A DNA stretch of 64,000 nt from Gemmatimonadales bacterium (GTDB taxonomy: Bacteria > Gemmatimonadota > Gemmatimonadetes > Gemmatimonadales > GWC2-71-9), in NCBI GenBank assembly GCA_965249575.1, contig OZ252244.1, forward strand, positions 527,127 through 591,126. The letters run 5' to 3'. A program made the position numbers and the translations under genes. Numbering within the stretch: the stretch's first letter is position 1; every line of letters begins with the position of its first letter. Positions 1 to 61,140 of the stretch are shown piece after piece. The notes beneath the pieces are model-generated. The model saw only the letters and a list, made by a program, of their open reading frames with translations. It was not told the DNA's origin and did no database searches.

Positions 1-2252
1 ATTGCGAACAGTCGCTCGTTGAACGCGGTTTGCGCGATTGGACGCGGCGTTCGCTCCCCCTCAAGGAGCAGGGCCAGGATGTCGGCGTTCCGGCCTTCGA
101 CGTTTCCTTCACGAAGGGCCAGCCATTTCCCGTCGGGGGACCATTCGGTCTGCCAGAGGTCGTGCTCCCGCTGAAGCATCAATCGGGGTGGACCGCTCCC
201 GTCCGCCGGCAGCGAGAACAGACTCTGCAGTGCACCAGTCCGGCTGGAGGAGAACGTGATACGCATTCCGTCGGGGGTCCATGTGGGCATTCGGCTGCCG
301 GTTCCCTCGAGGGTGCGCAGCGACAGCGTGCGCTGGTCCATGTCATACACCCAGATGTCTCCCTGAATCCCCACGGCCAGTCGATCTCCGCTGGGGGAGA
401 ACTCCGGGTCTAGAAACGATCGCCTCCCGGCCTCGACAGTCGCTTCAGCGCCGTGGCGATCGACCAGCACCAGCGTCGTGCCCGTCGCCGCGCCTCCAGC
501 CATGTACGCCAGCGAGCCGTTTCGGGATAGCGCAAGTTCCATGGGCCCCCCAGCACCGTTGCTGACGCTCTCCAAGAGTGGAATGGCTTGGCCGGTCACG
601 GCGAGGTTGCTGAGATCGAACGGCACGGCCACAACCGAGCCGTCCGACCGAACATAGAGGAGGTGTCCGGTGTCGATATAGTGTGGATTCGTCCCCACCT
701 CCGGGAGGTGGGCCACTCGTCCCGACGTTAGCGAGACGACCGCAAGATGTGCGTCCGTGAGGCTTCCGGACCAAGCAGTGAAGACCACGGCGTTACCGCC
801 TGGTAGGATCTCCGGCCACCTGTGACGAGTTTCTCCTTGGGCGGTGTCCGGCACCGTGATCGCTTGAGGTATTCCCCCAGCAGCCGAAACCCGCATGAGA
901 CCCCCTCGGCTCCCGGCACTCCGAGCGAACACAATGACGTCGTCCGGTCCCCAGCTTGCACCGTTGCCGGACCACTCCGAAATAACCAACGACGGTCCGC
1001 CAGCGGAGGCCACTTTTCTCAGTTGTCCGTTGGCCCCAAATCCCAGCCATTGCCCATCTGGCGAGAAGAACGGTTGGGAGGCACCCTCGGTGCCGGGAAT
1101 CGGTCGGGCTTCGAGTTCGTCGATGCCGCGAACGTACAATTGTGGACCATTCTCACCTTGGGCGAGGTACACGAGACGCGAGCCATCGGGAGCGAGGGCG
1201 ATGTCCACCCCATTCGGGTTCAGGAATTCCCGGCCCGCAGGCGGTATCACGGCGAAGCGTGCCGGCCCGGGCGAGGTCACGGGAGCCGGGCGTAGCCAGC
1301 CCCAGAGGGCAACGGTTGCCAGCACCGCGGCGAGCCCCAAGGCTGCAACGGAAACCCGCTTCCACGGACCCGACGGCATAGCCACTCCTGCCACTGCCTG
1401 CGTCGTCGGCAGCGTGAACGCCGGATTCGCCAGTGCCTCGGCAAACTGCGTGGTACGCTGGAACCGATCGGCCGGGAGCTTCTCCAGCGCCTTCGCGGTC
1501 GCGGCCGCCACGTTGGGCGGCACCGACTTCCGCAACTCCGTCACCGGCCGCGCCTCGTCCGTCACGATCTTCATGATGATCGCCTGCGCCGACGCCCCCG
1601 TGTGCGGCGGCTCGCCGGTCAGCATCTCGTACAGCACGCAGCCCAACGAGTAGACGTCCGAGCGGTGGGTGAGGTCTTTCTCGGCGGTCGCCTGTTCGGG
1701 AGACATGTAGTGCGGCGTGCCGAGGGAGAGTCCGGTCTCGGTCATGCGCCCGCCGGCGGCCGCGCTCACCGCCAAGGCAATCCCGAAGTCGGCCACCATG
1801 GGACGCTCATCGTGGAGCAAGATGTTCTCGGGTTTGATGTCGCGATGGATCACGTTGTGGCGGTGCGCGTAGTCCAGGGCATCTGCGACTTCGGTCGTGA
1901 TCTTCACCGCCTCCTCGATGCCCAGCTGGGTCTCGCGATTCAGCTTGTCCCGCAGCGATTCGCCCTCAATGAAGGGCATGACGTAATAAAGGAAGGAGTC
2001 GGCCTGGCCGGAATCAAACAGCGCGAGGATGTGGGGATGCTGCAGGTTGGCGGTGACCTTGATCTCCTGCAGGAAGCGGTCGGCACCGAGGACGGCGGCG
2101 AGTTCGGGACGCAGCACTTTGACCGCCACCTTGCGATGGTGCTTGAGGTCCTCGGCGAGGTAGACCGTGGCCATCCCACCCGCACCGAGCTCACGCTCGA
2201 TGCGGTAGCGGTCAGCGAGGGCGGCGGTGAGGCGGGTGAGTTGGTCCGTCAC
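1..2252 (-). CDS. Ser/Thr protein kinase fused to TolB/WD40-like beta-propeller repeats (kinase a; 3' end lies beyond the window edge)
   Basis: The minus frame is open from the window edge up to GTG at 2252. It is absent from the ORF track because there is no stop inside the window. My translation reads VTDQLTRLTAALADRYRIERELGAGGMATVYLAEDLKHHRKVAVKVLRPE..ALDYAHRHNVIHRDIKPENI..DFGIA..GTPHYMSPEQ. A hydrophobic stretch follows, then repeated propeller motifs (ALAPDGSRLVYLAQ, FFSPDGQWLGF, EFSPSGDRLAV, TWTPDGMRITF, EWSPDGKWLAL). Confidence 0.9.
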   Translation of the reverse strand, partial: MTDQLTRLTAALADRYRIERELGAGGMATVYLAEDLKHHRKVAVKVLRPELAAVLGADRFLQEIKVTANLQHPHILALFDSGQADSFLYYVMPFIEGESLRDKLNRETQLGIEEAVKITTEVADALDYAHRHNVIHRDIKPENILLHDERPMVADFGIALAVSAAAGGRMTETGLSLGTPHYMSPEQATAEKDLTHRSDVYSLGCVLYEMLTGEPPHTGASAQAIIMKIVTDEARPVTELRKSVPPNVAAATAKALEKLPADRFQRTTQFAEALANPAFTLPTTQAVAGVAMPSGPWKRVSVAALGLAAVLATVALWGWLRPAPVTSPGPARFAVIPPAGREFLNPNGVDIALAPDGSRLVYLAQGENGPQLYVRGIDELEARPIPGTEGASQPFFSPDGQWLGFGANGQLRKVASAGGPSLVISEWSGNGASWGPDDVIVFARSAGSRGGLMRVSAAGGIPQAITVPDTAQGETRHRWPEILPGGNAVVFTAWSGSLTDAHLAVVSLTSGRVAHLPEVGTNPHYIDTGHLLYVRSDGSVVAVPFDLSNLAVTGQAIPLLESVSNGAGGPMELALSRNGSLAYMAGGAATGTTLVLVDRHGAEATVEAGRRSFLDPEFSPSGDRLAVGIQGDIWVYDMDQRTLSLRTLEGTGSRMPTWTPDGMRITFSSSRTGALQSLFSLPADGSGPPRLMLQREHDLWQTEWSPDGKWLALREGNVEGRNADILALLLEGERTPRPIAQTAFNERLFA

Positions 2253-2913
2253 GGGGTTCCTGGTTCCCCCATCCTCCGCCGCACTTCCTCGAACCAGTTC
2301 ACGACGTACGTCAACTGCCTGCGCCCACCAGCGTCCTGTCTTCTCGTTCTCATCAGCAAGCCCCCGCCCTCAGGTGCTCGGGGGAACAAACTGCTTGGCG
2401 AGAACGAGGCTGCTATTATCGCACGAATCAAGGCGAATCTTCTTGACCGCTTCGTAGGCGGGATCGGTGTACCAACCTAGAGCAGCCTCTGCTGACTTGA
2501 ACCTCAACACCACGTAAACGCTGCGCTTCTCGCCTTCAAGGGGTTGGGCATCGTACTCGGCGGCAAGGATCTCCGCTCCGTGCTTCTGCAATAGCGGTAC
2601 CACCCCAGGCACGTAGCCTTCATACACCTTGGGGTCAACGATGTCATAACTGGCGATGATGTAGGCGGTCATAGCATGCTCCTTTTGTCGAACACATTGA
2701 TTCCATGAGGCCAGAGCGTCCACCCGACGCAGGCTGGCAGAACGTTCTCGAGGGGCGGCCAGTTAGAGTCGCAGCACTCTTGACGGCCACCTTCCGCTTG
2801 TGCTTCAAGTCCTCGGCGAGGTAGACGGTGGCCATTCCGCCAGCACCGAGCTCGCGCTCGATGCGATAGCGGTCGGCCAGGGCAGACGTGAGACGGGTGA
2901 GGAGATCAGACAG
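2253..2913 (-). pseudogene. Remnant of a tandem kinase gene (kinase b): only the N-terminal ~46 codons and C-terminal ~38 codons survive, with the interior replaced by a DUF1330 gene
   Basis: Minus strand 2775-2913 reads LSDLLTRLTSALADRYRIERELGAGGMATVYLAEDLKHKRKVAVK. This is colinear with the starts of the kinases at 5582 and 11418, but has CTG where they have GTG, and the homology stops at ~2775. Minus strand 2253-~2369 reads GGLLMRTRRQDAGGRRQLTYVVNWFEEVRRRMGEPGTP*, the tail type of propeller kinases. Its TGA overlaps the GTG start of kinase a (GTGA). Confidence 0.75.
2370..2672 (-). CDS. DUF1330 family protein
   Basis: MTAYIIASYDIVDPKVYEGYVPGVVPLLQKHGAEILAAEYDAQPLEGEKRSVYVVLRFKSAEAALGWYTDPAYEAVKKIR.. 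The ATG at 2672 is preceded by AAAGGAG. The track ORF start at 2723 is probably too far upstream. Confidence 0.8.
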   Translation of the reverse strand: MTAYIIASYDIVDPKVYEGYVPGVVPLLQKHGAEILAAEYDAQPLEGEKRSVYVVLRFKSAEAALGWYTDPAYEAVKKIRLDSCDNSSLVLAKQFVPPST

Positions 2914-2930
2914 GCACTAGCTCAGGGCAC

Positions 2931-5582
2931 CTAGTTCTCGCCCGCCACGAGCTGCTGAAATCGTGGATCATCGCGTAGCGGATCCCAGACGGGATCGATT
3001 CTGAGCATCGGCACGGAAGTGTTTGAGGGGACCGCCAACAAACTTTCGAGTCGGTCAATGGCAGCATCGTACTCGCCGACCATGGCGTAGATACGCGCCA
3101 AGTCCTCCACTCGCCAGGCACCGCGCCACGCTTCTTTGCTCATCGGAAGTAACTGAATGGCCAGCTCGCCTTCGCGGACCGCATCGTCCTTGCGACCGAG
3201 ACCGGCATAGGCGATGCCGAGAGCGGAGTGCAACCGCTCGTCATCGGGACGCTCTTTAATCTCGGACTCTAGAATGCTGCGCGTCGAATCGTAATAGGCT
3301 CGCTCACGCTGCGGGTGCCCCATGAGTCCATAGATCTTGGCATGGAGTTGAGATTTGAGCACGTAGAACAATCCGTCTTCGAAAACGTCTGCCGCACTGG
3401 AAGCCAGCTTGTCCAGCGCCTCCTCATGGTCACCGTCCAACACATCGGTCAGCACCGACACGTACGTGACCCACTGATGTTCTCGGAGGCCAGAGCGCTC
3501 GGCCTCCTCCAGTACTGCGCGAGCCCTCTCCGTATTGCCTTCCAAACGGAGGTTCAAAAAATGCACCTTATCCGCGTACGGGCCGGTCGAATCCGGAACC
3601 AAGGAAATAGCTCGTTCAAATTGGCGGACTGCCCCCACAGCGTCGCGCAAAAGCGCGAACGTTTGCGAAAGGTTAAGAGCCATGTTCGCAGAACGCGGGT
3701 CGAGCTCTGCGGCTCTGACGAAATGTGGCAGTGCGTCAAGCATGTTCCCCTGCCGTCGTTGGACGGACCCGATCCCGGCCCAAAGCTCTGCGTTGTTCGG
3801 CTCGCTTGCTTGGGCGATGGCGAATTCGGCTAGAGCACGATCATACTCCAGATAACCCCAGTAGTGGTAGAATCCCAAGGCTCGATGGGCTGCGGCAGAT
3901 CGGGATCAAGCCGCAAGGCCTCGTCCACCGCTTGCTTGGCCATCGGCCGACGCTGTTGGGTTCGGTCATAGAAGAACCACCACATTCCCGAATGAGCCCA
4001 AGAGAGTTTCGCGTAGGCCACCGCGAACTCCGGGTCCAACTCGACGGCCTTCTGGTACATTTGGATGGCAATCTGCCAGTCCTGTTGTTCAACGCTTCGT
4101 CCGGAGTAATCATTTCCGCGCAAGAAGTAGTCGTACGCCTCCTGGTTGTCGGTGGGCTGCGCGGCCAGGCGTCGGCGTTCGGGCTCGAGCAGCGTGACGT
4201 CCAGCTCCTGTGCGACCTGCTCGGCGATGTCCGCCTGAACGCGGAAGATGTCCCCGGCTACCAGGGCGGCGGTGTATCGATCCGTCCAGAGATGGGCGTC
4301 GTCGGAGACGCGAATGAGCTGGGGTGTCACCCGGACCTGACCCGAGCCATCCGGTGATCGGTCAGTGCGTATCGTACCCTCCAGCACGTACTCAACGCTC
4401 AGTTCTTCCCCGATCTGCTGGAGCGTCTTGTCCGAGCCCTTGTATTGCGTCGCGCTCTGCCGTGAGATGACTCGCAATCCGCTGATCTCAGCGATCCGGC
4501 TGGTGACTTCCTCGCTGATGCCGTCAGCGAAGTAGTCGTCCTCTGGCGTGCCGAGATTCTCGAATGGTAAGACAACCACCCTCGGAACGTCGGCCGCCGC
4601 TGTGGTTCCGCGTTGGCCGGAGTTACCGATGAACCACGCCGCGGCCACGATGAGAATGACCCCGGCAGCTCCGAAAGCAGGAACGCGGAAGCGTCGCATC
4701 GATTTCGTCGGGGACGCCGGAACGGATTGAGTGTCCGTGGGCGTCATCCCCACGCTCGGAGTCGCCAGCGCCTCGAGCTGTGGCGACAACTCGTCCGCAC
4801 TCTGCCAGCGGTCGGCCGGCTTCTTGGCTAGGCACTTCATCACCACGGCTTCCAACTCCGCCGAGACCTGGTCCCGGTGCCTGCTGACCGGCTCCACCTG
4901 CTCTGTGACATGAGCAGCCCGTATTGATTGCGGCGTCGTGCCCGTGAACGGTGTTCTCCCAGCGAGTAGCTCGTAGGCCATCGCACCCACCGCATAGATA
5001 TCTGCACGGTGGTCGATGTGCGGATCCGCCGTGGCCTGCTCTGGGGCCATGTAGGCCGGCGTGCCGAGGGCGACGCCCGCGGCCGGTGGCTTCGCTGACC
5101 GCCTTGGCTACGCCAAAGTCGGTCACCATGGCGTGACGCCCCGCAAGCATGACGTTGTCAGGCTTGATGTCCCGATGCACCACGCCCTGCGAGTGGGCGA
5201 ACGCCAAGGCATCCACCACTTCGCGGACGATCCGCACCGTTTCAGTGATGGGTAATTCCCTCTCGTGCTGCAACCGCTCCCGGAGGGTATCACCTTTGAT
5301 GTAGGGCATGACGTAATACAGGAACCCGTCGGCCTCCCCGGAGTCGTGTAGCGGTAGGATATGCGGATGCGTCAGGTTGGCCGCAATCTTGATCTCGCGG
5401 AGGAATCGCTCGGGGCCGAGCGCCGCCGCCAGCTCCGGCCGTAGTACCTTGACAGCAACCTTGCGATCGTGCTTGAGGTCGTGGGCGAGATAAACTGTGG
5501 CCATCCCACCAGCGCCAAGCTCCCGCTGAATGCGGTAGCGGTCGGCTAATGCTGTTGTGAGACGGTCGAGGAGGTCCGACAC
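2931..5582 (-). pseudogene. Ser/Thr kinase - TM - VLPFENLG module - TPR protein (kinase c), broken by two frame changes
   Basis: Track ORFs 4623-5582, 3830-5050 and 2931-3878 are colinear pieces of one protein built like the intact gene at 9001-11418. The start is GTG at 5582 (MSDLLDRLTTALADRYRIQRELGAGGMATVY..HRDIKPDNVML..DFGVAKA). Frame change 1 lies at ~5063-5085 in a CGCGGGCG run, after which GTPAYMAPEQ..VVVLPFENLGTPEDDYFADG..TPR follows. Frame change 2 lies at ~3885-3895: the sequence is CAGCCCAT, whereas CAGGCCCAT would read ..DLPQAHRALGFYHYWGY. The gene ends DPRFQQLVAGEN*. Confidence 0.8.
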
Positions 5583-5862
5583 CGCACCACGCTTGTCGGT
5601 GACCTGACTACGATACGGCGGAGGGGATCAGGCGGCCAGGGTGGGATGCGGTTTCATCCCTGCGCCACGAGTCCGGCCGTGGCACCACTCTCCACTCGCC
5701 AATCCTCGGGCGCCGGCTCAGCCGAACGGAGCCCGGCCTGAACCCCCACTCCGCGCAGGAACCCGCTACGGCCGGCGCGACCTCGATTTCACCCTCTCCC
5801 TGCCGGCACCCATCATGACCCATGCGTTGCGCTGCCGGGCAGAGGAGAACCAGATTGTGCAT

Positions 5863-6010
5863 ATGCCAGCACCGCATCGATCAGCACGGTCGGGGATGTG
5901 CTCGCGTTGCCGGAGGCCGGCCTGCGTCACGAGTGGGATGGCGAGCACGTCGTGACGCTAGCGCCGCGCGCCGATCGTCAACGCGTGGTTGGTCGTCTGT
6001 GGCCGCATGG
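5863..6010 (+). pseudogene. 5' remnant of a Uma2-family endonuclease gene (paralog of 11607-12146)
   Basis: Nucleotide-level colinearity with 11655-11800. ATGCCAGCACCGCA.. is shared, then after a frame slip the sequence reads SISTVGDVLALPEAGLRHEWDGEHVVTLAPRADRQRVVGRLW, matching TIEELLALPEDGLRHELLDGKHVVTPAPSVDHQRVVGRLL. Homology ends at ~6005, where the cupin gene begins. Confidence 0.7.
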
Positions 6011-6019
6011 GGGGGGTGA

Positions 6020-6457
6020 ATGACTGATCGGATTCCTGCGGTTGTCCAGCCCGGTGACCAGCGAACAACGTGGCGTGGCGCTGGCGACGAATACCGCGTC
6101 CTCGCATCAGGCGATGACACCGCCGGGGATTATTTCGTGATGGAGGGCATCGTGCCTCCAGGTGGTGGCCCACCGCCGCACATTCAGACCCGAGAAGAAG
6201 AGGCGTTCTACGTGCTGGAGGGTGAGGTTGTCTTTCGGGCTGCCGGCGAGCGCATCCTCGGCCGCCCGGGCACCTACCTCAACATTCCACGCGGCGTTGC
6301 GCATCACTTCAAGAACGAATCGGCCACGACCGCGCGGCTCCTCATCTTCTTTGCGCCAGCGGGCATTGAGCCCATGATGGAGAGGATGGCGGCTGACCCA
6401 GACAACTACATTGGAATCGGGAAGGAATACGGCGTCGAGTTTGTCGATCGTGCCTAG
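6020..6457 (+). CDS. Cupin domain protein
   Basis: 145 aa. Contains ..GDYFVMEGIVPPGGGPPPHIQTREEEAFYVLEGEVVFRAAGE..YLNIPRGVAHHFKN.., the two-motif cupin signature. The ATG is preceded by a G8 run. Confidence 0.8.
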   Translation: MTDRIPAVVQPGDQRTTWRGAGDEYRVLASGDDTAGDYFVMEGIVPPGGGPPPHIQTREEEAFYVLEGEVVFRAAGERILGRPGTYLNIPRGVAHHFKNESATTARLLIFFAPAGIEPMMERMAADPDNYIGIGKEYGVEFVDRA

Positions 6458-6582
6458 GGGGAGAAAGTCACTCAGTCGCTGCGCCCTCTCGAACTCACGA
6501 CGACGATCTCGCCCTCACTGACTTCCTGTTCCGCCCTGCGCCCCGTTCTCTGCCGACCGGAGAGGGCGTAAACGAGAGCAAG

Positions 6583-8909
6583 TTACCCTCCGACCTCCTC
6601 CGGCAGGTTCATCCGCCGCAGCATCTCTCCGAATCGCGGATCAGCCTTGAGCGCCGCCGAGAACGGAGCAACGGCGAGATAGACCATGTCGTGGTCGCGC
6701 TGGTCATATGCGCGCTCGAGCCACTCGAATGCCCGATCGGTTTCTCCTGCCATGTCGAACATCACCACGACCAGCATCGGTTTGACGAACATCCTGGCAG
6801 CGCGCCTGCCGAGGATGTCCGCCGCAGCGAGCGCCGCATCTCGGTAGCTCCCCCCACCGTACCCCTGGTCGATTGCGCCCATCACCTCCGGGTCTCGCAA
6901 TAGCTCAAAGAACGTTCGGGCCTGCGCCATTGCTTCCTCGGCCAGGCCCTGCCTATTGAGGGCTCCCGCTAAAGCGTAGCGCGAGAGCGAGAGGTTCGGT
7001 GCCATGTCTATCGTCTGCCTTAGTTGCGTAGCGCCATCGTCAATCCGTCCGGCGAAGACCATCTGGATGCCGCTCAGGGCATGGATAAAGGGGTTGTACG
7101 GATCGATCTCGAGCGCATGCTGCACGTGCGGGGTCGCCTCCTCAGTCCGCCCGAGAGCCGTGAGAGAGTGTCCGAAGAGAACGCTCGTGAGCTGATCGTT
7201 CGAGTCGAGCTCGATTGACCGACGGAACGCCGCCTCGGCCGGCCCCCATTCCCAGTCGTACCATGCGCGACCCTGCGCCAGCTGGGACCAGCCCTCCACA
7301 AGCGTGCTGTCTAGCTCGACGGCCCGCTCGGCAGCAGCGATCAACGAGGGGCCGGCTTCGTGTGGCGGGGAGAGACCGATCACCAACCGTCCGCCCCAGA
7401 CCCGACCGATGCCAGCGTGGGCCGGGGCATAGCTGACATCGTGCTCGAGGGTCCGGTTGAAGTACTGCAACGCGATCCCAAGGTCTTGCGGTGTATTTCG
7501 ATCGGCGTGGAAAACGCCGCGCATGTACGCCTCGTACGCCCGGGGATCGATTTGCGGCACCGTTGTGGGGCGCCCCTCTGCCTGCGGAAGCGCCAGCTGC
7601 ATCTCACCGACGATCGCCTCCGCGACATCGCGATACAGAACGAATACGTTCTGCAGATCGGCGTCGTAGGATCTGGACCAGATGTATTCCTCGGTCTCGC
7701 CGTCGAACAAGCGTACCTGGATCCCCACACTGTCGCCCACGCGAAAGGCCGATCCCTCCACGAGAGCGTCCACGCCGAGCTCGCTGGCGATCTCGCGACC
7801 CGGTTTGTCGGTGGTCGAGTACCGCATCACCGATGGGCGGGCGATTACGGTGAGCCCCGCTTGGGTGAGTTGTGAGATCACCGCCTCGTGCATTCCCTGC
7901 ACGAGATACTCCTGGTCAGGATCGTTCATGAGATTACCGAAGGGCAATACCGCCAACCGGTTGATCGCAGGATCGCCGCCCTGGGTGTAGCCCCACAAAC
8001 CCGCCACCACCAACAGGACGGCCACTCCAGCAACCGCGGGCCGGCGCCACCTTCTCGGTCCCACCCGCGCCACGACCGTCCCCGACGTCAACACGTCGGC
8101 AAGGGTGCGCGCTGACGGAAACCGATCGGCCGGGCTCTTGGCCAGCGCCCGCTCCACCGCCCGCCCCACGAACACCGGGATCGTAGGATCACGCGCGCGA
8201 AGCCCCGGCACCGTATCCACCGCGTGTTTCGCTAGCAGCGCCTGGGCCGTCGTCCCCTCGAACGGTGCGTGGCCCGCCACCATTTCGTACACGACGCAGC
8301 CCAGGGCATAGACGTCGCTCCGCGCGTCGACGTCCTCCGATCCCACAGCCTGCTCCGGACTCATGTAGGCTGGCGTACCGAGCGCCAATCCGGTCCCGGT
8401 CAAGCGCTCGCCGCCCGCGGCTTGGACGGCGCGCGCGATCCGAAATCCGCCACGATCGCCTGATCGTCCGCGAGCAGAATGTTCTCCGGCTTGACGTCTC
8501 GATGGACCACGCCCCGCTCGTGCGCGTAACTCAAGGCCGACGCTATGTGATCGGTGATGCGTATCCCGTCTTCCAGCGTGAGCTTTCCCTCCCGGTCCAG
8601 CCGCTCCCGCAGCGACTCCCCTTCGATATACGGCATGACGTAATAGAGGAATCCGTCCGCGTCGCCGGAGTCGTGAAGTGTCAGTATGTGGGGATGTGTC
8701 AACTGCGCCGCGATCTCGATCTCGCGAACGAACCGCTCGGGGCCGAGCGCGGCTGCCAACTCCGGCCGCAATACCTTCACAGCCACCATGCGATGATGCT
8801 TGAGATCCTCGGCGAGATACACGGTCGCCATGCCCCCCGCGCCGAGCTCCCGCTCGATGCGGTAGCGGTCGGCAAGGGCGGTGGTGAGCCGGGCGGGCTG
8901 ATCCGTCAC
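6583..8909 (-). pseudogene. Ser/Thr kinase - TM - LPFGNL module - TPR protein (kinase d), split by one frame change after the DFG motif
   Basis: Track ORFs 8400-8936 and 6583-8403 form one gene. ..IVADFG then (I)ARAVQAAGGERLTGTGLALGTPAYMSPEQ reads through if GGATC at ~8437-8441 were GGAATC. The likely start is GTG at 8909 (VTDQPARLTTALADRY), in the same context GGAGCAGGAACGCC-GTG-ACG-GA as kinase a. Confidence 0.8.
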
Positions 8910-9000
8910 GGCGTTCCTGCTCCCCCCGTGAGCCACCGTAACTCCTCGAAGCAGCTCACAACCCTAGTTCCATCCCTTCGCCTTCACCCGGCGAGGGTCA

Positions 9001-11418
9001 TTAGTCGAGCCGCACGTTCTTCATCAATACGTCAAGCCTTGGATCGGAGCGCAGACCGTCAAGCCTCGGATCTACTGCCATATAGCCGATCCACGGAGAG
9101 CGCTCTTCGAGCGCGCGGTCTAACCAACGAAACGCGTCATCCGTCTCACCGAGCGCCACGTAAATCACCGCCGTATGGTACGCGGATACATGCCGCGTTG
9201 CGGACTCCTGCTTTAATCGCTCGAGGATCTTCCTCGCCCGCTCCCCGTCGCCCGCCTTGGCATGGGCATGACCCAGCGAGGCTATGTAGAGTGGGTTGCC
9301 GCCCGATATGTCTATCGCTTGCTGCGCCTCCGAGATCGCCTCCTGATACCGCCCTGTTTGCTCCAATGCCCATCCCAGATGCCAGTGTCCCGGCGCGAAG
9401 CGGGCACCCAGCTCCAGCGCCTTCTCATATTCCTGGATCGCCACCTCGTGCCGGCCCGCGAAGTAGTGACGCAGGCCTACCCAGGTATTGATGATGGGCG
9501 AGAGCGGATCCAACTCGCGCGCCTTCTCCGCCTCCCTGAGCGCTTCCTCGTGCCGCCCCATGGCAGACAGGTAGCCGCCGTACCAGTGGTGCGCAGTCGG
9601 GTACCTCGGGTTGAGCTCGATGGCTCGCCTGTACTCTCGTTCCGCTGCCTCCCAATCATGATCGAATTCGAGGTGAATGTGCGCCAGGGAAGTGTGCGGC
9701 TCCGCGAGCGTCTCGTCGAACTCCAGAGCGTTCATGACTGCCTGTTTGGCCTTCGGGAAGGTCTCTTTCGGAGCCAGCACGCTGTACCAGCCTCGGAAAA
9801 TCCACGTGTCGGCAATTCCGACATGGGCTAAGGCATAACCGGGGTCCAGATCAACCGCCTGTTGAAAGTAGGTGAGCCCGATCTGAATCTCCTTTTCCGT
9901 TCGCTTGTTCCAGAAGTGCCGGCCTCTCAGGTAGAGCCTGTAGGCGTCTAGATTCTCAGTTGGTCTGGCAGTCACAGACCTGAGCTCGCCCCGGAGCAGC
10001 GTAACGCCCAGCCGGTCAATCACCTGGCTGGCAATGTCGGACTGCACCTCGAAGATGTCCTCGATCACACGCTCGTAGGATTCCGACCAGAGCTGTGTGC
10101 CGTCAGCGACGCGGATGAGCTCCGGGCTGATGCGCACTCGGCGGGAGCCGCTTCCGTCGCCACCCCAAAGGACGCGTCCGCCGAGGATATAACCGACGCC
10201 TAGCTCCTCGCCGATCTCGTGAATGCTCTTGTTGGTACCTGCATAGCCGAGCGCGCCTCTGCGCGAGATGACTGAGAGCCCGCTCACCGCACCCAGGCGA
10301 GTGGTAACCTCATCGGTCATGCCGGCAGCGAAGTACACATCCTCGGGAGGGCCCAGATTCTCGAACGGTAAGACGACGATCATCTTCGTTTCGACAACCG
10401 ACTCCTCTCGCGGTTGTCGGACGGCCGCTTCGGGCTCGGGTGTGGTTCGACTGAGCCACAGGCCATACCCCCCCATCCCCAGGATCAGGAGTCCAGCGAT
10501 TCCGGCAGCGAACCATCGTTTCCGGGAGGCCGCTGTCTCGTTAGCTGGCCTTCCCACCAGATTCTTGTCGAGCGTCCCGACCTCCAGCCGACGCTCTAAG
10601 GCGTCAACGAACTCTGAGGCCCTGTCAAATCTGTCTGTCGGAACCCTCGCGAGCGCCTGCTGCACCGCTGCCGCCACGTGGACCGGCACCGTCTCGCGGA
10701 GCTCGGTCAGAACCACCGGTCGTACCGTCAGAATCTTTGCAAGGATTGCTTGCGCAGACGCCCCCGTGTGCGGCGGCTCGCCCGCCAACATCTCGTATAA
10801 CACACAACCCAGCGAATAGATGTCCGAGCGACTCGTCAGGTCCTTCTCCGCCGTCGCCTGCTCGGGACTCATGTACTCCGGCGTCCCCAGCGAAAGCCCA
10901 GTCGCCGTCAATCGCATACCGCCGGCCTCGCTCACCGCGAGGGCGATGCCAAAGTCGGTGACCATCGCCTCACCCTCATGCAGCAGGATGTTCTCGGGTT
11001 TGATGTCGCGATGGATCACAGCCTGGCGATGGGCGTAGTCGAGCGCCGATGCAACCTGACCGGTTACGTGAACTGCGTCGTCAATGGAGAGTTGGCGTTC
11101 ATGACGAAGTCTGTGGCGCAGTGATTCGCCCTCGACCACCGGCATGACGTAGTAGAGGAAACCGTCGGCTTCCCCTGAGTCGAACAGCGGCAGAATATGC
11201 GGGTGCTGGAGGTTGGCGGTGACCTTGATCTCCTGTAGGAACCGGTCGGCACCCAGGACAGCCGCCAGTTCAGGCCGAAGCACTTTGACCGCCACCTTGC
11301 GGTCGTGCTTCAGGTCTTCGGCCAGATAGACCGTCGCCATCCCACCCGCGCCGAGCTCGCGCTCGATGCGGTAGCGGTCGGCTAATGCTGTTTTGAGACG
11401 GTCGAAGACGTCGGACAC
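9001..11418 (-). CDS. Ser/Thr protein kinase with TM segment, periplasmic VVLPFENLG module and C-terminal TPR repeats (kinase e, intact, 805 aa)
   Basis: GTG start. MSDVFDRLKTALADRYRIERELGAGGMATVYLAEDLKHDRKVAVK..VIHRDIKPENILL..DFGIALAVSEAGGMRLTATGLSLGTPEYMSPEQ; a TM segment WFAAGIAGLLILGMGGYGLWL; IVVLPFENLGPPEDVYFAAGMTDE; multiple TPR-like repeats (ALELNPRYPTAHHWYG.., KALELGARFAPGHWHLG..). Confidence 0.92.
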   Translation of the reverse strand: MSDVFDRLKTALADRYRIERELGAGGMATVYLAEDLKHDRKVAVKVLRPELAAVLGADRFLQEIKVTANLQHPHILPLFDSGEADGFLYYVMPVVEGESLRHRLRHERQLSIDDAVHVTGQVASALDYAHRQAVIHRDIKPENILLHEGEAMVTDFGIALAVSEAGGMRLTATGLSLGTPEYMSPEQATAEKDLTSRSDIYSLGCVLYEMLAGEPPHTGASAQAILAKILTVRPVVLTELRETVPVHVAAAVQQALARVPTDRFDRASEFVDALERRLEVGTLDKNLVGRPANETAASRKRWFAAGIAGLLILGMGGYGLWLSRTTPEPEAAVRQPREESVVETKMIVVLPFENLGPPEDVYFAAGMTDEVTTRLGAVSGLSVISRRGALGYAGTNKSIHEIGEELGVGYILGGRVLWGGDGSGSRRVRISPELIRVADGTQLWSESYERVIEDIFEVQSDIASQVIDRLGVTLLRGELRSVTARPTENLDAYRLYLRGRHFWNKRTEKEIQIGLTYFQQAVDLDPGYALAHVGIADTWIFRGWYSVLAPKETFPKAKQAVMNALEFDETLAEPHTSLAHIHLEFDHDWEAAEREYRRAIELNPRYPTAHHWYGGYLSAMGRHEEALREAEKARELDPLSPIINTWVGLRHYFAGRHEVAIQEYEKALELGARFAPGHWHLGWALEQTGRYQEAISEAQQAIDISGGNPLYIASLGHAHAKAGDGERARKILERLKQESATRHVSAYHTAVIYVALGETDDAFRWLDRALEERSPWIGYMAVDPRLDGLRSDPRLDVLMKNVRLD

Positions 11419-11606
11419 AGGGCCACACCGGTTTGTGACCCGATTAGGATACGGTGGAGGGGGTTAGGCGGCCAGGGTGATTGGTGGCTCGTCTGGATCG
11501 CCTCCCTCGGATAAACCCGCGACTCTCGGTCGCGAGCGGGGCCCGAGCGGGAATCCGCCACGCATGACGCTAGTCCGGTACGGCTATTTTCCTACACGCC
11601 ACAATC

Positions 11607-12146
11607 ATGTCCCATGCGTTGCGCCGGTCGGCCGAGGGGAACCAGATTATGGGTATGCCAGCACCGCAGACGATCAACACAATCGAGGAGCTGCTCGCGC
11701 TGCCGGAGGACGGCCTGCGTCACGAGCTGTTGGACGGCAAGCACGTCGTGACACCAGCGCCGTCCGTCGACCATCAGCGGGTGGTTGGACGGCTCTTAAT
11801 GATCCTGACGACGTCGATCGGCTCGGATCATTGTATCGAAGTGCTCTCGAGCCCAGCCGACGTGCACTTGACGCCACGGACCCTCGTTCAACCGGACGTG
11901 TTCATCGTCCGCCGCGACGACGAACGGCTGGCCAGGGAGTGGCGTGAGGTCGGGGTGCCGCTGGTAGCCGTCGAGGTCCTGTCACGCTCCACCGCCGCCC
12001 GGGATCGCGGGACGAAGCGGCGCCTCTATCTCGAGGCGGGCGTCGAGGAATACTGGATCGTCGATCTCGATGCGCGACTCATCGAGCGCTGGCGGCTCGG
12101 GGACGACGGGCCGGAGATCGTCGACGGCGAGATGGATGGGAACTGA
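11607..12146 (+). CDS. Uma2 family (DUF820) putative endonuclease; the C-terminus appears frame-shifted (see findings)
   Basis: ..TIEELLALPEDGLRHELLDGKHVVTPAPSVDHQRVVGRLL..PDVFIVRRDD..VPLVAVEVLSRSTAARDRGTKRRLYLEAGVEEYWIVD. Alternative starts are ATG at 11649 or 11655. The expected family C-terminus (ELSVGVSGFLEVPVLFERL*) is in the -1 frame at 12140-12199. Confidence 0.8.
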   Translation: MSHALRRSAEGNQIMGMPAPQTINTIEELLALPEDGLRHELLDGKHVVTPAPSVDHQRVVGRLLMILTTSIGSDHCIEVLSSPADVHLTPRTLVQPDVFIVRRDDERLAREWREVGVPLVAVEVLSRSTAARDRGTKRRLYLEAGVEEYWIVDLDARLIERWRLGDDGPEIVDGEMDGN

Positions 12147-12405
12147 GCGTTGGGGTGTCGGGATTCCTCGAGGTACCAGTTCTCTTCGAGCGTCTGTAGC
12201 TTCAGCACCCCTCCGTGCTCGGCATTCGCTGAACGCGCCCACCGCTAGCCGTCCGTCCGCCATACTATGCGTCATAGACGTTGCGACAATCCGTAATCGA
12301 TTGACCGCCGACTGCCGCAGTTGGCGCCTGGCGGCAATCCGGCGCTTCCGCCGCGACGTCACCGGATGCACAGCAAGCGATCTACCAACAACACCGGAGG
12401 CCCTC

Positions 12406-12560
12406 ATGCCCGAAATCCAGATCAACTACCTCGCGGTCGGCGCGGCAGCGTTAGCCACGCTCGTTATTGGTGCTGTTTGGTATTCGCCGCTGTTGTTCAG
12501 CAAACTCTGGATGAAGGCCCACGGATACACGGCAGAGGACCTCGAGCAGATGCGACTACT
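12406..12560 (+). pseudogene. DUF1761-like N-terminal stub (~50 codons)
   Basis: GGAGG lies 5 nt upstream of the ATG at 12406. MPEIQINYLAVGAAALATLVIGAVWYSPLLFSKLWMKAHGYTAEDLEQMR matches the start of DUF1761 membrane proteins. After ~12555 the frame turns Arg/Pro-rich and non-hydrophobic (the track ORF 12070-13014 is a composite). Confidence 0.5.
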
Positions 12561-18979: not shown

Positions 18980-19672
18980 TCACGAAGCGGGAGCACTCGG
19001 CTGCTCGTCCTCCTCGGGCGCGCCACCTGAGGCAGCGATTTTGAACGCGGTGACCACTGCCAGCCCAAAGAACAGGATATCGAGGGGCCCGAAGCTGCCG
19101 AGGAACCCTTCTTCGGCAGCCGTGGCTCGAAGCTCCGGCATCGCGGCCGCGACGTTCGCACGCATCTCCTGTTCTCTGTCATTTCGGAACTGCGTTTTGC
19201 CGTCGTCACTGAGCGTGCTCCAGCGGGTCAGCGCCTCGGTCCAGACGTCAGGAGGGTACTCTGCCCGGGTGGAAGCCTGTTCGGGATCGACGCCCGCTGG
19301 CCAGTCCACGGCTTTCCCCTCCAGCTCGAACTCCTCCGCGACCGCGTCGGCGACATACGAGACGACGAACTCCTCGTTATCCAGCTGCTCCGCATACGCC
19401 TCTACTATGGTGTCCGCGTCGGGCATCGCTATCTGTACCGCCCAGTATTTCCCGGCGAGGATGGACATCACCGAAATCCCCACGGCCAGGACTCCCGTCG
19501 CCGTACCGCCTGGCCCCCGATTTCCCAGTGTCACGCCGAAGCCGACGAGGCCTCCGATCGCCCACGCGATCCATCCGATCTCGAGTTGGAAGGCGTAGGC
19601 CACACCTGCCCAGATCAACGCCCCCAGCACACCACCACCGACGCCTCCGAGCGCAGCACCCATGCTGTACAT
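18980..19672 (-). CDS. Hypothetical membrane protein (N- and C-terminal TM segments, acidic central region)
   Basis: 230 aa. AGGAGG lies upstream of the ATG. Gly-rich TM helices GVLGALIWAGVAYAF.., LDILFFGLAVVTAFKIAA. No family recognised. Confidence 0.6.
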   Translation of the reverse strand: MYSMGAALGGVGGGVLGALIWAGVAYAFQLEIGWIAWAIGGLVGFGVTLGNRGPGGTATGVLAVGISVMSILAGKYWAVQIAMPDADTIVEAYAEQLDNEEFVVSYVADAVAEEFELEGKAVDWPAGVDPEQASTRAEYPPDVWTEALTRWSTLSDDGKTQFRNDREQEMRANVAAAMPELRATAAEEGFLGSFGPLDILFFGLAVVTAFKIAASGGAPEEDEQPSAPAS

Positions 19673-20070
19673 GTGGTCCTCCTGGCAGGTCGGCTACGCA
19701 GCCGTGAGATGATCGAGGAGATCAGATACAGCGCCACCGTTGTGGCGACCGACTACGATACGCCGGGACGTACCAGTCGGCCAGGGCTTCCTCACGGTCT
19801 GCTCAACGTCGTGGCTACGTAATCCGCCTCCCCCAGACGGGTTGGAGAATCCAAACGAGTGTCGCCAGCACCGCACCGCGGCGTCGCGGTGGCGAGGCCC
19901 TGGCACGCCCTAAACGAGCACGTCTTGAAGGAGGCTGGTGTTAACGCGCCGATCAGAGACCTCGCATCGCACCGCAGGGGCTGGGACTCACAAACAGCGG
20001 AAGCACTCGGCACCGGTCTCACCGGACAGGGGCCGTCCCAAGAAACCGGTAGTGTGCCGCGCGCTCCCAC

Positions 20071-40712: not shown

Positions 40713-43571
40713 ATGATCGATCAGGTCCGCAGAGCACTCGCCGGTCTATACCGAATCGACCGGGAGTTGGGACAGGGTGGAATGGCGGCCGTCTTTCTGG
40801 CCGAGGACCTCAAGCATCACCGGCCCGTGGCCGTCAAGGTGCTGCGGCACGACCTCGCCGCGTCCTTGGGGTCAGAGCGCTTCCTTCGCGAGATCGAGAT
40901 CGCGGCCCGGTTGAATCACCCGCACATCCTCCCGGTCCACGATTCCGGCGCGTCTGACGGGGTGCTCTACTACGTCATGCCGGTGGTCGAGGGCGAGTCG
41001 CTGCGGCAGCTGATGAACCGGGAAAAGCAGCTTCCCGTTGAACAAACGCTCGAGATCGCGAGGCAGGTCGCGTCGGCCCTCGACTACGCGCACCGGCAGG
41101 GGGTCGTGCACCGCGATATCAAGCCGGAGAACGTCATGCTCCACCAAGGCGAAGCCATGGTGATGGACTTCGGCATTGCCCTGGCGGTGAGCGCGGTGGA
41201 GGGCGAGCGGCTCACGGGCACCGGCTTGGCGATCGGTACGCCAGCATACATGAGCCCCGAGCAGGCGACTGGGAGCGCCGCAATCGACGCCCGCAGCGAT
41301 ATCTACAGCTTGGGCTGTGTCGTATACGAAATGCTGGCCGGCGAGCCACCATACACGGGCCCGACCCCCCAAGCTATCATGGCACGAAGCCTCACCGATG
41401 AAGCGCCCAAGATCCACACTATTCGTCGCGCCGTCCCCGAGTCCGTCGATGCTGCGGTGGCCCAAGCTCTATCCACGACCCCGGCCGACCGCCCCGGGAC
41501 CGCCGGGGAGTTCGTTGCCATGCTCTCCAGCAGTGCTACCGGTGTGAGACGGCGCGGACGCCGCAACGTCCCCCAATCGCTCATGGCAGCCGGGATCGCC
41601 GGGTTGCTCGTTGCCGCAGGGCTTTTTTGGGCATGGCCGCGCGCCGCTGCCAGCTCAGTGACCCCTGGCACCGAGGTCCTCGCCGTCGTGCCCTTCAACG
41701 CGGTGGGGGCAGATGTCGAAGTGCTCGGCGAAGGAATGATCGACCTCCTGTCCACCAACCTCGACGGCGTCGGAGGCATCCGGACGGTCGACCCGGGCAC
41801 CGTGTTGAGCCGGTGGCACAGACGCTCCGATGGAGGCGGTGGGTTGGAGACGGCGCTGGCGGTAGGACGGGAGGTCGAGGCCGGCTCGATCCTCACGGGA
41901 AGCGCGGTGCAAGCGGGCAACAGCGTCCGAATCACGGCGGATCTCTATCTCGTGGACGGGCAGAAGCTCGCCACCGCGTCCATCGACGGACCAACCGACA
42001 GCGTTCTGACATTGGTGGACAGCCTGAGCCTTCGGTTGGTTCGCGAGATCTGGCGAGCTCAGGAGCCCCTCCCCGGCCTGCGGGTCAGCGCAATCACTAC
42101 CGGTTCGGCGGACGCGATTCGCGCGTACCTGAGGGGGGAGCAGTACTACCGTCGCGCAGAGTGGGATTCCGCGATCGTCTCTTTTCAGGAAGCCGTGGAT
42201 GCCGATTCGACCTTCGCCCTCGCCTACGCACGGCTGGGATTCAGCCACGGCTGGGTCACGTCACTCTTCGGCAGGCCGTTTGCCGAGGCAGTGGCAGCGG
42301 CCGCCAGGCTCGCAGATCGGCTCCCCGAGCGGGATCGCTCGCTGGTGGTCGCGGGACAGCTCTTCGGCGAATTCAGCCTCGCGGGCCTGGACACCATGCG
42401 AGCCTACGTGGCGCGGTATCCGGGCGATGCCGACGGGTGGTTCCTGCTGGGCGATATCCAATACCACGCCCAGCCGATTCTGGCGCTCAGTCCCGACGAC
42501 TATTACGGGCCCTTTGAGCGAGCCGTGGAACTCAACCCGTCACTCGCCGCCGCGCTAATCCATCCCATCGAGCTCAGCCTCAGCACCGGCGACAGCGTGC
42601 GGTTCGCACGGTATCGTGAGCTCTACGAACAGGTGGGGGGAGACCTCCCCGCCGACCTGGGCTCCCTGAATGCCATCGCGTGGAGCCGCTCCGATACGAC
42701 TCTCAAGGCCGTGCGGCGGGCCTTTCGCGAGATCCGCCTGCTCTACGGGAGGTTCCCGGCTTTGTTCTACGGGTCACCGGCGCTCACGCCCCAGGATCTC
42801 CTAGTCGGCCTGGAGATGCCCGCGCGCCTACCGGCTGGTCTCCCCCCAGGCGCCAACCTGATGCAGCGTGGGTCGGTCTTGCAGAGCCTCGGGCGTCTGG
42901 CAGAGGCCAGGGTAGTTGCCGAGTCCCTCAAGGCCTACGATCAGATAGCCGGATATCAGATGCTGCTGGCCCCACTGTTTGGCGGCTACGCGTCCCCATC
43001 CCTCGCTGACGAAGCGGTGGACCTACTTGCACGCATCTCCCCCGATAGCGCACCGCACCGGGCGATCGTCAGCCTGGGTCTCAAGGACCTCGAGGGTGCC
43101 CGTCAGGCGATTCGGCTGGGGCTAGACCCAGATTTCGAGCTCACCCAGGGCCCGCCCAAATGGCGCAACCTCTTCACGGCAGCAGCAGGTTCACTCAAGC
43201 TGCTCGAGGGAGACACAGCCTCCGGTGTGCAGGAGCTTCGAGCCGCATTCGACGAGATCGGTTTCGGAAACCTGGCATATGCCGTGACTCCGCTCCGATT
43301 CCAGCTGGCAGCGACCCTCGCCGCACGGCCCCAGACCCGGGCCGAGGGCATCCGCCGGCTGCGGTGGGGCTTTCCCTACGCGCCTCAATATCGTGCAGTC
43401 GGCCACATGCTGATCGCGCGCGCACTCGAAGCTGAGGGAGACCGCACCGGAGCCGCCGATGCCTACGCGGAGGTATTGCGGCTCTGGAAGGGCGCGGACC
43501 CGGAGCTCCAGCCCATGGTTCGGGATGTCCGCGACGCGCTCACCCGCCTGACCGCCGAGCCGGTAAACTAG
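40713..43571 (+). CDS. Ser/Thr protein kinase with TM, periplasmic module and long TPR-like C-terminal region (kinase f, 952 aa)
   Basis: MIDQVRRALAGLYRIDRELGQGGMAAVFLAEDLKHHRPVAVK..VVHRDIKPENVML..DFGIALAVSAVEGERLTGTGLAIGTPAYMSPEQ; a TM segment LMAAGIAGLLVAAGLFWAW; VLAVVPFNAVGADVEVLGEGMIDLL. Confidence 0.92.
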   Translation: MIDQVRRALAGLYRIDRELGQGGMAAVFLAEDLKHHRPVAVKVLRHDLAASLGSERFLREIEIAARLNHPHILPVHDSGASDGVLYYVMPVVEGESLRQLMNREKQLPVEQTLEIARQVASALDYAHRQGVVHRDIKPENVMLHQGEAMVMDFGIALAVSAVEGERLTGTGLAIGTPAYMSPEQATGSAAIDARSDIYSLGCVVYEMLAGEPPYTGPTPQAIMARSLTDEAPKIHTIRRAVPESVDAAVAQALSTTPADRPGTAGEFVAMLSSSATGVRRRGRRNVPQSLMAAGIAGLLVAAGLFWAWPRAAASSVTPGTEVLAVVPFNAVGADVEVLGEGMIDLLSTNLDGVGGIRTVDPGTVLSRWHRRSDGGGGLETALAVGREVEAGSILTGSAVQAGNSVRITADLYLVDGQKLATASIDGPTDSVLTLVDSLSLRLVREIWRAQEPLPGLRVSAITTGSADAIRAYLRGEQYYRRAEWDSAIVSFQEAVDADSTFALAYARLGFSHGWVTSLFGRPFAEAVAAAARLADRLPERDRSLVVAGQLFGEFSLAGLDTMRAYVARYPGDADGWFLLGDIQYHAQPILALSPDDYYGPFERAVELNPSLAAALIHPIELSLSTGDSVRFARYRELYEQVGGDLPADLGSLNAIAWSRSDTTLKAVRRAFREIRLLYGRFPALFYGSPALTPQDLLVGLEMPARLPAGLPPGANLMQRGSVLQSLGRLAEARVVAESLKAYDQIAGYQMLLAPLFGGYASPSLADEAVDLLARISPDSAPHRAIVSLGLKDLEGARQAIRLGLDPDFELTQGPPKWRNLFTAAAGSLKLLEGDTASGVQELRAAFDEIGFGNLAYAVTPLRFQLAATLAARPQTRAEGIRRLRWGFPYAPQYRAVGHMLIARALEAEGDRTGAADAYAEVLRLWKGADPELQPMVRDVRDALTRLTAEPVN

Positions 43572-57574: not shown

Positions 57575-57940
57575 ATGGGTAAGACCCGCTGGGAATTCCC
57601 CAATGAGATCCGGCTGGTGCTCGAGGTGCTCGAGGAGCACCGGGCGGCCGACGTCACCGTCCTGGACTTGCGGGAGCTGAGCGACGCCACGGATTATTTC
57701 ATAATCGCAACCGGCTCCTCGGACACGCACGTCCGTGCACTCACCGAGCGACTCGCGGAAACGCTAAAGAAGATGGGCGCGCAACCGCACCACATCGAGG
57801 GATTGCAGGCTGGACGGTGGGTACTGCTAGATTTCGTCGATTTCGTGATACACGTGTTTCATCCCACCCTGCGGGAGTTCTACCAGTTGGAGCGGCTGTG
57901 GTCCGACGCCCCGTCGTTGGTATCCAGCGGGGGCGTTTGA
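57575..57940 (+). CDS. rsfS: Ribosome silencing factor RsfS
   Basis: The ATG at 57575 lies inside the longer track ORF. ..AADVTVLDLRELSDATDYFIIATGSSDTHVRAL..WVLLDFVDFVIHVFHPTLREFYQLERLW.. Confidence 0.9.
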   Translation: MGKTRWEFPNEIRLVLEVLEEHRAADVTVLDLRELSDATDYFIIATGSSDTHVRALTERLAETLKKMGAQPHHIEGLQAGRWVLLDFVDFVIHVFHPTLREFYQLERLWSDAPSLVSSGGV

Positions 57941-57942
57941 CG

Positions 57943-60900: not shown

Positions 60901-61140
60901 CCGATAGAGGGCGCCTTCTTCTTCGATGCGGGTCTCGCGTGGCGGGCAGGTGTGGACTTGGTGTGGGACCGTTCGACGGGTCAAGACCCCCGCGCGGTTC
61001 GGCAGCCGCTCAAGAGCTGGGGTTTTTCGGTGAGGGCCAATATTCTAGGCTTCGTGATCCTCCGCGCCGATTACGCGAAGCCGCTCGATCGGAAAGGCCA
61101 GGGATCGTATTGGACTCTCAGCCTGGGCCCGACCTTCTAG
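57943..61140 (+). CDS. Giant exported fusion: HExxH metalloprotease-like domain + TolB-type beta-propeller + C-terminal Omp85/surface-antigen-like beta-barrel
   Basis: The start is GTG at 57943 or ATG at 57958 (signal MLVVGLAATLPGGVEA/QYFGQNKVQY). FEHVLQHEIVHQF..MEGMAEYLS; propeller motifs SPALSPDGSEIAYF, SWSPDGTRLVFTG, HPVWSPNGMTIAFATDRG, NPQWGPDGRTIAYLSDRTG; the barrel-like end reads ..FFFDAGLAW..ILRADYAKPL..YWTLSLGPTF* with a terminal Phe. Confidence 0.8.
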   Translation: MLHRAMLVVGLAATLPGGVEAQYFGQNKVQYRHMDFSVIATEHFDIHYYDGHRQAAIDAARMAERAYARLSHILNHEYRQRQPIILYGSHTEFQQNNVTDIAEGTGGVTDPFRHRVMLPFTGSANDFEHVLQHEIVHQFQFDVFARGRIGAGIQRLISVNPPLWLMEGMAEYLSLGAIDANTAMWLRDAALEGRLPTIEQLTYDPRVFPYRFGHGLLAHIGSRWGDEAIGEILHAVAASGVEQGLQRALGMSLEELSEEWRTAVQRAYLPEIADRQRPREFGRPVLTRRRSSGTLHVSPALSPDGSEIAYFSEGKSFFVDLYVADAETGKVRRRLVKSAFSTDFESVRFLNSSGTWSRDGKYFAIAAKRGGRDDLVIFDMKRYRVHRRIEVPLAGLTNPSWSPDGTRLVFTGYDGGLSDLYIINVDGTGISRLTHDRFADLHPVWSPNGMTIAFATDRGDDSDLESLKFGSLKVALYSIRSGRIDVLPSMQGANSNPQWGPDGRTIAYLSDRTGVRNVFLHDLNEAVDYQLTDVFTGIAGITPLSPALSWAIEADRLAFSHYERGRYNVYAVDNPRSLRRQPYRNADPAPIVVASASQTTDAVARAASPPMQPANPDRPKRSLVAEAASYYRFSGGFRASEVVPADGRTEHPVSVMRLLDSANLALPDTNEFIFRTYAAKLSPDYVVRPTVGYARDNFGSGVFGGTAISLSDILGNHRMVLAGQVNGRIDEAQVLGAYANLSRRTNWAAGIQQDPIFFYSGSGFGSDAQGNPAFTTRLERFVVRQAFIEAFRPFNRFRRIEFGMKAVNVDRALQTFEEAYDPVSGLIYDARLDVQGLGSNSYIQPTIAMVFDNSLSLYVGPFAGRRSRFEYSPAYGQWRFHQFLGDYRRYDRLLGPFTLATRLLFFGRFGRDSEQFPLFLGRPELVRGYTAGSFRRNECRASSPATLSSCGALDQLSGSRVAVANAELRFPLLRQAALGFLPIGFPPIEGAFFFDAGLAWRAGVDLVWDRSTGQDPRAVRQPLKSWGFSVRANILGFVILRADYAKPLDRKGQGSYWTLSLGPTF

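Follow-up and report, generated by a model that had tools for sequence, protein, structure and literature searches.

A partly broken and reshuffled cluster of duplicated receptor kinase genes in a Gemmatimonadales bacterium

Tandem gene families are generally modeled as evolving by birth and death with interlocus gene conversion, and in silent-cassette systems, such as pilE/pilS and vlsE, an expressed copy has broken or promoterless paralogs nearby and the products are mosaic. Among bacterial serine/threonine kinases (STKs), species-specific expansion by tandem duplication and/or recombination has already been described (PMC11032199), and lineage-specific expansions of Hanks-type kinases have been reported for myxobacteria and Planctomycetota (Perez et al. 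2008, as cited in PMC11032199). Here, we analyzed a cluster of receptor STK genes in a Gemmatimonadales bacterium (contig OZ252244.1); "the window" denotes the whole 64,000-nt stretch analyzed, with positions counted from its first letter. Five kinase-derived loci, named a to e, occupy the minus strand at 1-11418. Together they are a clear example of a cluster of duplicated membrane receptor kinase genes, partly broken and reshuffled by deletion and recombination between copies, and we consider it probable that this lineage-specific set of paralogs has been caught in the course of birth-and-death turnover. The loci are as follows.

Kinase a, 1..2252, minus strand: Hanks-type kinase with a PD40/TolB-like beta-propeller; its 3' end lies beyond the window.
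Relic b, tail, 2249..2374, minus strand: final ~40 codons of a propeller-type kinase, ending in a TGA that overlaps the GTG of a (GTGA).
Relic b, head, 2712..2913, minus strand: ~45-65 codons of a kinase N-terminus, recognized by DNA alignment and sequence reading.
Kinase c, 2931..5582, minus strand: c-family TPR kinase pseudogene, 889 aa once repaired, with lesions at ~5080 and ~3893.
Kinase d, 6583..8909, minus strand: d-family TPR kinase, 775 aa once repaired, with a single lesion at ~8440.
Kinase e, 9001..11418, minus strand: intact 805-aa TPR kinase and a chimera, whose kinase domain at residues ~14-250 (about 10669-11379) is of the propeller class.

A preliminary description of the same DNA had placed five loci on this strand, and their coordinates are borne out by open reading frames (ORFs), DNA alignment, and Pfam. 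The Pkinase profile (PF00069, cut-off 31.7 bits) scored 176.5 bits in a, 171.3 in e, 121.4 in the N-terminal piece of c, and 117.7 in that of d, with the b head falling under the cut-off at 16.2 bits. The G-loop, VAVK lysine, HRDxKPxN, DFG, and (A/S)PE motifs lie in one uninterrupted frame in a and e; c and d have every catalytic motif with the frame broken between DFG and APE, and b has the G-loop and VAVK only. The Pkinase and PD40 (53.8 bits) matches of a confirm its earlier assignment to the TolB-propeller type running off the window; its reading frame is open through all 750 codons seen, and in the kinase domain it shares 80-83% identity with propeller-type kinases from other Gemmatimonadota. 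Matches to TPR_2, TPR_11, TPR_16, and related Pfam families occur in e, c, and d, and a hydrophobic segment C-terminal to the kinase domain is visible in the translations of these TPR kinases. Each kinase would have its Hanks-type domain in the cytoplasm and, beyond a single membrane helix, a sensor of TPR or beta-propeller type in the periplasm. Compared with intact homologues, c carries two lesions, d one, and b several in addition to its lost interior; we infer that c, d, and b are non-functional and that a and e are working genes.

The strongest result concerns kinase e, which is a chimera of a propeller-class kinase domain and an e-family TPR C-terminus. The preliminary description had taken e for an intact TPR-type kinase; the 805-aa ORF with Pkinase and TPR matches is indeed intact, but its chimeric nature had been overlooked. 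In a neighbor-joining (NJ) tree of the kinase domain (56 sequences, 265 columns, 200 bootstraps), clades match the C-terminal families, with support of 100% for d, 100% for c, and 99% for the e-family core. The e kinase domain lies in the propeller clade (98.5% bootstrap), grouped with the e family in 0/200 replicates, and had a as its nearest neighbor in 94% of replicates, so that kinase-domain placement and C-terminal family are incongruent in e and congruent in d (100% bootstrap). Pairwise identities point the same way. The e C-terminus is 81% identical to that of P0122, its closest orthologue, with only 66% identity between the kinase domains of the same pair, and it is 61-70% identical to about 25 other e-family proteins, whose kinase domains are 62-67% identical to that of e; in 66 ordinary e-family pairs, the kinase domain is on average 4 points more conserved than the C-terminus.

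Max-chi-square permutation tests supported a switch on either side of the e kinase domain. On the 5' side, comparison of e with c and a placed the switch at coding-sequence nt 38-53, with 52 sites for c and 10 for a to the left and 66 for c and 142 for a to the right (max-chi-square 52.8, p <= 0.0005). On the 3' side, it lies between residues 250 and 257, where the ratio of propeller-diagnostic sites goes from 33:8 before to 1:55 after (p <= 0.0005). The 5' flank, the head, and the C-terminus from residue ~257 are of the e family, and the e head (SDVFDRLKTALADRY) is similar to the P0122 head (SEVIERLKTALADRY). A propeller-class domain resembling that of a has thus overwritten codons ~14-250 of e, while the flank, head, and TPR sensor were kept; this is most simply read as one internal conversion tract of ~0.7 kb. 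Over the kinase domain, e and a share 73% nucleotide and 76% amino acid identity, which is too diverged for a itself to have been the source; the donor was presumably an a-like paralog, either lost or located outside the window. As a separate observation, the kinase domain of P0122 (L084 4569-6953) also lies outside the e-family core (61-64% identity, versus 64-73% for its C-terminus), suggesting an independent kinase-domain replacement in that lineage.

Further evidence for exchange between copies comes from the 5' flanks, in which the following elements were recognized.

Shared c/e 5' block, copy 1, 5583..5998, no strand assigned: probable promoter plus a degraded, frameshifted Uma2 5' fragment (5641-5998, plus strand).
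Shared c/e 5' block, copy 2, 11419..12146, no strand assigned: block 11419-11794 plus an intact divergent Uma2 gene (11607-12146, plus strand).
Propeller-tail relic upstream of d, 8906..8985, minus strand: degraded; reads VVSCFEELRWLTGGAGTP followed by a stop, and its TGA overlaps the GTG of d.
Third c/e-type promoter and head copy (g), 19691..19793, minus strand: reads AVSDLLDHLTAA followed by a stop, and ends after ~16 codons.

Two classes of 5' flank are real at the DNA level, and they do not track the gene bodies. Upstream of c and e, 476 nt are common at 70% identity (blastn, E 1e-54), in a block that spans the first ~45 nt of coding sequence and the probable promoter and then continues into the divergent Uma2 gene. 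Uma2, a putative restriction endonuclease fold family, is intact beside e (Pfam E 1e-31); beside c, it is a frameshifted stump, a truncated copy of the first ~75 codons, within a block that also contains repeat families D8, D11, and D12. The duplicated unit was Uma2 together with the probable promoter and the kinase head. Along 102 nt, copy g shows 76% identity with its counterpart upstream of c, and it carries a 1-nt deletion. It adjoins the AGGAGG ribosome-binding site and ATG of an unrelated, unannotated 230-aa membrane ORF (18980-19672, minus strand), and because it runs straight into these signals, this ORF may have inherited the promoter of a kinase that was deleted. The other flank class is shared by a and d. 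The relic upstream of d, about 75 nt long, matches the flank of a at 43/66 ungapped identities, the next best of the ~128,000 window positions reaching 34, and is homologous to the junction of the b tail with the head of a; it is recognizable as a propeller tail only through its DNA homology to the b tail. The switches from flank to body relationships fall within the universally conserved ALADRYRIE block (max-chi-square permutation p <= 0.002).

The case for recombination had previously been built on two classes of N-terminal motif. The motifs were read correctly in a (VTDQLTRL), d (VTDQPARL), c (VSDLLDRL), and e (VSDVFDRL), but b has a CTG in place of its start codon and reads SDLLTRL. More generally, we rejected these 7-residue heads as recombination markers. 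Homologues of the d family in other genomes start with MTDQLDRL, MTDQLSRL, MSDLLDRL, or MADTFDRL, and the heads of the c and e families are equally variable; since both motifs occur within single families, neither is diagnostic and they prove no recombination. The proposal of recombination between paralogs itself stands, now supported by the DNA flanks, the breakpoints, and the e tree. Similarly, the view of d as an a-type head on a TPR body holds for the 5' flank alone, which resembles that of a; its kinase domain (80-86% identical to the d family, and inside that family with 100% bootstrap) and its C-terminus are congruent.

An explanation with no recombination at all would invoke shared ancestry and constraint on the head motif and promoter, with an e kinase domain that is fast-evolving or convergent. 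The presence of TDQL- and SDLL-type heads within single families in many genomes is compatible with this, as is the first stretch of ~50 codons (ALADRYRIERELGAGGMATVYLAEDLKH), which is near-invariant in every paralog and common to all of them at the DNA level. Constraint cannot, however, account for a 476-nt c/e homology that takes in a dead Uma2 fragment, nor for the propeller-tail relic upstream of d, and the placement of e in the propeller clade with sharp 5' and 3' switches likewise speaks against it. Moreover, the upstream regions of e orthologues elsewhere have no similarity to the c/e block. We therefore regard this explanation as distinctly improbable and retain recombination between paralogs.

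Locus b and the sequence upstream of d record losses. The b tail matches the C-terminal ends of propeller kinases ("...VVNWFEEVRRRMG" and "...QLTYVVNWFEEVRRRMG"; tblastn, E 6e-4), whose NWFEEL-type tail is typical of the class; a belongs to the same PD40/TolB-like class through its PD40 match. In the b head, CTG stands where a start codon is expected, one nucleotide has been inserted after GTCAAG, and a TAA interrupts the frame; at the nucleotide level this head is 80% identical to that of a, against 74-75% for c, d, and e. The preliminary description had b as a hybrid of a c/e-type head and a propeller tail; the tail is propeller-type, but the head DNA is nearest to a, and b is best read as an a-like propeller kinase that has lost its interior, not as a hybrid. 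That b keeps only its two ends was correct, although an intact gene between them had gone unseen.

DUF1330 gene, 2370..2672, minus strand: intact, 100 aa, with its own AAGGAG ribosome-binding site; Pfam PF07045, E 1.4e-20.

This gene occupies the site of the former interior of kinase b. We saw no flanking repeats or signs of mobile elements around it, and none of 85 related kinase loci contained a DUF1330 gene. An alternative-frame match of the region to a propeller C-terminus (E 0.002) was discarded as chance, given 364 queries. The remnants show propeller kinases that appear to have been almost wholly deleted, leaving b with its head and tail and, upstream of d, a tail alone.

Kinases c and d, by comparison, are nearly complete, and the two frame breaks reported earlier for c and the one for d were all found. 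The first lesion in c (~5080) leaves it 14 nt short relative to a, d, and e and 17 nt short relative to c-family homologues, removing "xxLTTA" of the activation loop from the junction of DFGVAKAVSEATGR and GVALGTPAYMAPEQ; with CCGC on both sides of the inferred junction, it looks like a microhomology-mediated deletion. The second is a 1-nt deletion at ~3893. In d, GGG has become GG in the DFG codons at ~8440 (GATTTCGG-ATCGCG, against GACTTCGGGATCGCG in d-family homologues). The c kinase domain joins c-family kinases with 100% bootstrap, and full-length homologues of d are ~775 aa at about 60% identity. Once repaired, both c (889 aa) and d (775 aa) contain no further stops and are collinear with intact homologues (~888 and ~775 aa). 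Because the frame-breaking lesions are few, no other stops have accumulated, and all catalytic motifs survive, c and d were probably inactivated recently.

Could these breaks instead be functional? Split kinases, programmed frameshifts, or phase-variable switches would yield a soluble N-terminal and a membrane sensor fragment, and several features hint at this. In c as in d, the first lesion hits the activation loop, at sites between DFG and APE that are ~33 alignment columns apart; the shifted frame of d stops at a TGA overlapping the TTG of the downstream frame (TTGA, 8400-8403); and neither gene has gathered other stops. However, no slippery heptamer or simple-sequence tract is present at any lesion site (GGG to GG, the 17-nt deletion, or CTGCCGCAGCC), c is broken a second time 1.2 kb downstream, and its shifted frame persists for ~150 out-of-frame codons. 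Each of the ~240 retrieved homologues reads as one unbroken ORF, and the TTGAC in d is ordinary conserved codon context, found also in e. The proximity of the lesions and the TTGA overlap are probably chance plus this conserved context, and we give functional breaks very little credence.

We find it scarcely more credible that the frame breaks are base-calling errors and the mosaics chimeric joins in a repeat-rich region. The loss of one G from a GGG run in d and the exact stretches of about 17-23 nt that the paralogs share in their heads would fit such an artefact. Against this, the first c lesion, a 17-nt deletion with CCGC to either side of its inferred junction, is no homopolymer error, and elsewhere the window is filled with long, unbroken ORFs that contain complete Pfam domains. 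With 27-35% nucleotide divergence, the copies differ far too much to have been collapsed or wrongly joined; the e kinase domain copies no other sequence in the window; and the relics (the b head, the Uma2 fragment, and g) hold multiple independent lesions.

The array is not the unbroken tandem run that had been described, since d and c are separated by the Uma2 fragment and a plus-strand gene.

Cupin_2 gene, 6020..6457, plus strand: interrupts the array between d and c; Pfam PF07883, E 1e-15.

No kinase relics were found in this d-c gap, which holds the cupin gene and the Uma2 fragment, and the 85 related kinase loci contained no homologue of the cupin gene or of the membrane ORF beside g. Along with the DUF1330 gene in b and the propeller-tail relic upstream of d, these two elements between d and c had been missed in the preliminary description. 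Its spacings were right, at 17 nt between c and b and a GTGA overlap at the start of a; a second GTGA joins the relic upstream of d to d, and the upstream partners at both overlaps are now relics.

The suggestion of an ancestral co-translated operon fares well by comparison with relatives, in which stop/start overlaps are common, but an opposite-strand gene now splits d from c. We counted 43 pairs of neighboring kinase genes on the same strand in related loci; in 13 of these the overlap is 4 or 1 nt, and in another 10 the genes are no more than 20 nt apart. Such frequent overlap makes operon-like ancestry plausible, as a property of the phylum. Arrays of four to seven same-strand receptor kinases, commonly with 4-nt or 1-nt overlaps, were observed at L055 (seven in 18 kb), at L008, L009, L042, and L066 (five each), and at L044; in L008, a 1-nt overlap links each of the five ~722-aa kinases to its successor. 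Receptor kinases in operon-like arrays, with as many as seven members, appear to be a typical, little-studied feature of Gemmatimonadota. With regard to synteny, kinase arrays are frequent in related loci, but the e orthologues P0121, P0122, and P0123 have no conserved synteny. One related locus, L005 (JBDGYW010000276.1), has c-, d-, and a-type kinases in a row on one strand, in another order than in the window; these copies are too diverged to count as conserved synteny. All best genomic matches were to Gemmatimonadota metagenome-assembled genomes, and a scan of the genome collection for relatives and synteny returned paralog-level matches only (<=42% full-length identity).

Taken together, the results are consistent with an operon-like, translationally coupled tandem array that diversified by duplication and in which recombination and deletion would have been seeded in the near-invariant first ~50 codons. 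Recombination in the head block may have generated the hybrid 5' ends, so that three bodies carry the promoter-head block of c/e/g and both a and d are preceded by the tail-GTGA-head junction, while gene conversion would have exchanged the kinase domain of e. Illegitimate deletions could have taken most of b, a propeller gene between e and d, and the kinase at g, and small indels would have disabled c and d recently. We infer that gene conversion or unequal crossing-over within the genome, combined with microhomology-mediated deletion, produced these changes.

Several points weigh against this turnover scenario. Neither a close relative nor a second strain turned up, protein identity reaching about 70% at best, and any order or timing of the events is therefore tentative; protein e likewise has no exact match on record. 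The sequence nearest to a donor of the e kinase domain, a, is only 73% (nucleotides) and 76% (amino acids) identical, and the NJ tree places e deeper than the orthologues of a. The trees are NJ on 265 columns, not maximum likelihood, and the max-chi-square tests take in flank columns that align non-homologous sequences. Finally, the single-base loss in the GGG run of d could be a sequencing error. Turnover by duplication, recombination, and deletion nonetheless remains, in our view, the probable account.

A bolder version would make the first ~50 codons a built-in recombination joint that repeatedly swaps kinase domains and sensors, with the disabled copies serving as a sensor reservoir, so that the cluster would be a domain-shuffling nursery and not a site of passive decay. 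Hints of recurrence include the domain mismatch in P0122, three promoter-head copies on three bodies, and the location of all mapped 5' switches in one block. We nevertheless think this unlikely, and favor ordinary birth and death of copies.

Other features of the window were also recorded. A sixth kinase, f (40713-43571, plus strand; 952 aa), has Pkinase and weak TPR matches and converges, with a 4-nt overlap, on an 809-aa ORF without a Pfam match (43568-45997, minus strand). At 57817-61140 (plus strand), a 1107-aa PD40 beta-propeller protein lacks a kinase domain and weakly matches the propeller of kinase a. An Rfam scan of the whole window returned nothing, transfer RNA scans of the window and of L005 found none, and a promoter consensus scan of 1-12500 gave no matches, with terminator-like sites fewer than in shuffled sequences. 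A frame scan of the window based on third-codon-position GC was noisy and, beyond the array, revealed no gene that was obviously split. In an annotation, the label of pseudogene should go to c, d, and b, with DUF1330, cupin, and Uma2 entered as separate genes.

How, then, does the cluster compare with the systems outlined at the start? Broken paralogs near an expressed copy, together with mosaics, are shared with pilE/pilS and vlsE, but the present locus has neither near-identical cassettes nor repeats framing variable segments, its copies are too dissimilar for homologous exchange to be frequent, and no hallmark of such a system was encountered. The fit to the birth-and-death model is closer, with tandem paralogs, hybrids whose breakpoints fall in the most conserved block, head and tail remnants, and recently disabled copies; the difference is that this is a bacterial signaling family with copies 27-35% diverged in nucleotides, a divergence which indicates that exchange was old or rare, with no ongoing homogenization. 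As in the described STK expansions (PMC11032199), the paralogous membrane kinases pair Pkinase on the cytoplasmic side with TPR or beta-propeller repeats in the periplasm and lie beside their duplicates, and the species-specific clades of that study were likewise attributed to duplication and/or recombination. Here, by contrast, the phylum is Gemmatimonadota, the swap of a kinase domain can be placed at codons ~14-250 of a single gene, and relics and pseudogenes are present, whereas the word "pseudogene" has 0 occurrences in the text of PMC11032199. The cluster is ordinary gene-family turnover and no new kind of system, and it leaves the current understanding of how such gene families evolve unchanged, while recording base by base how a receptor-kinase family gains combinations of kinase and sensor and loses copies.

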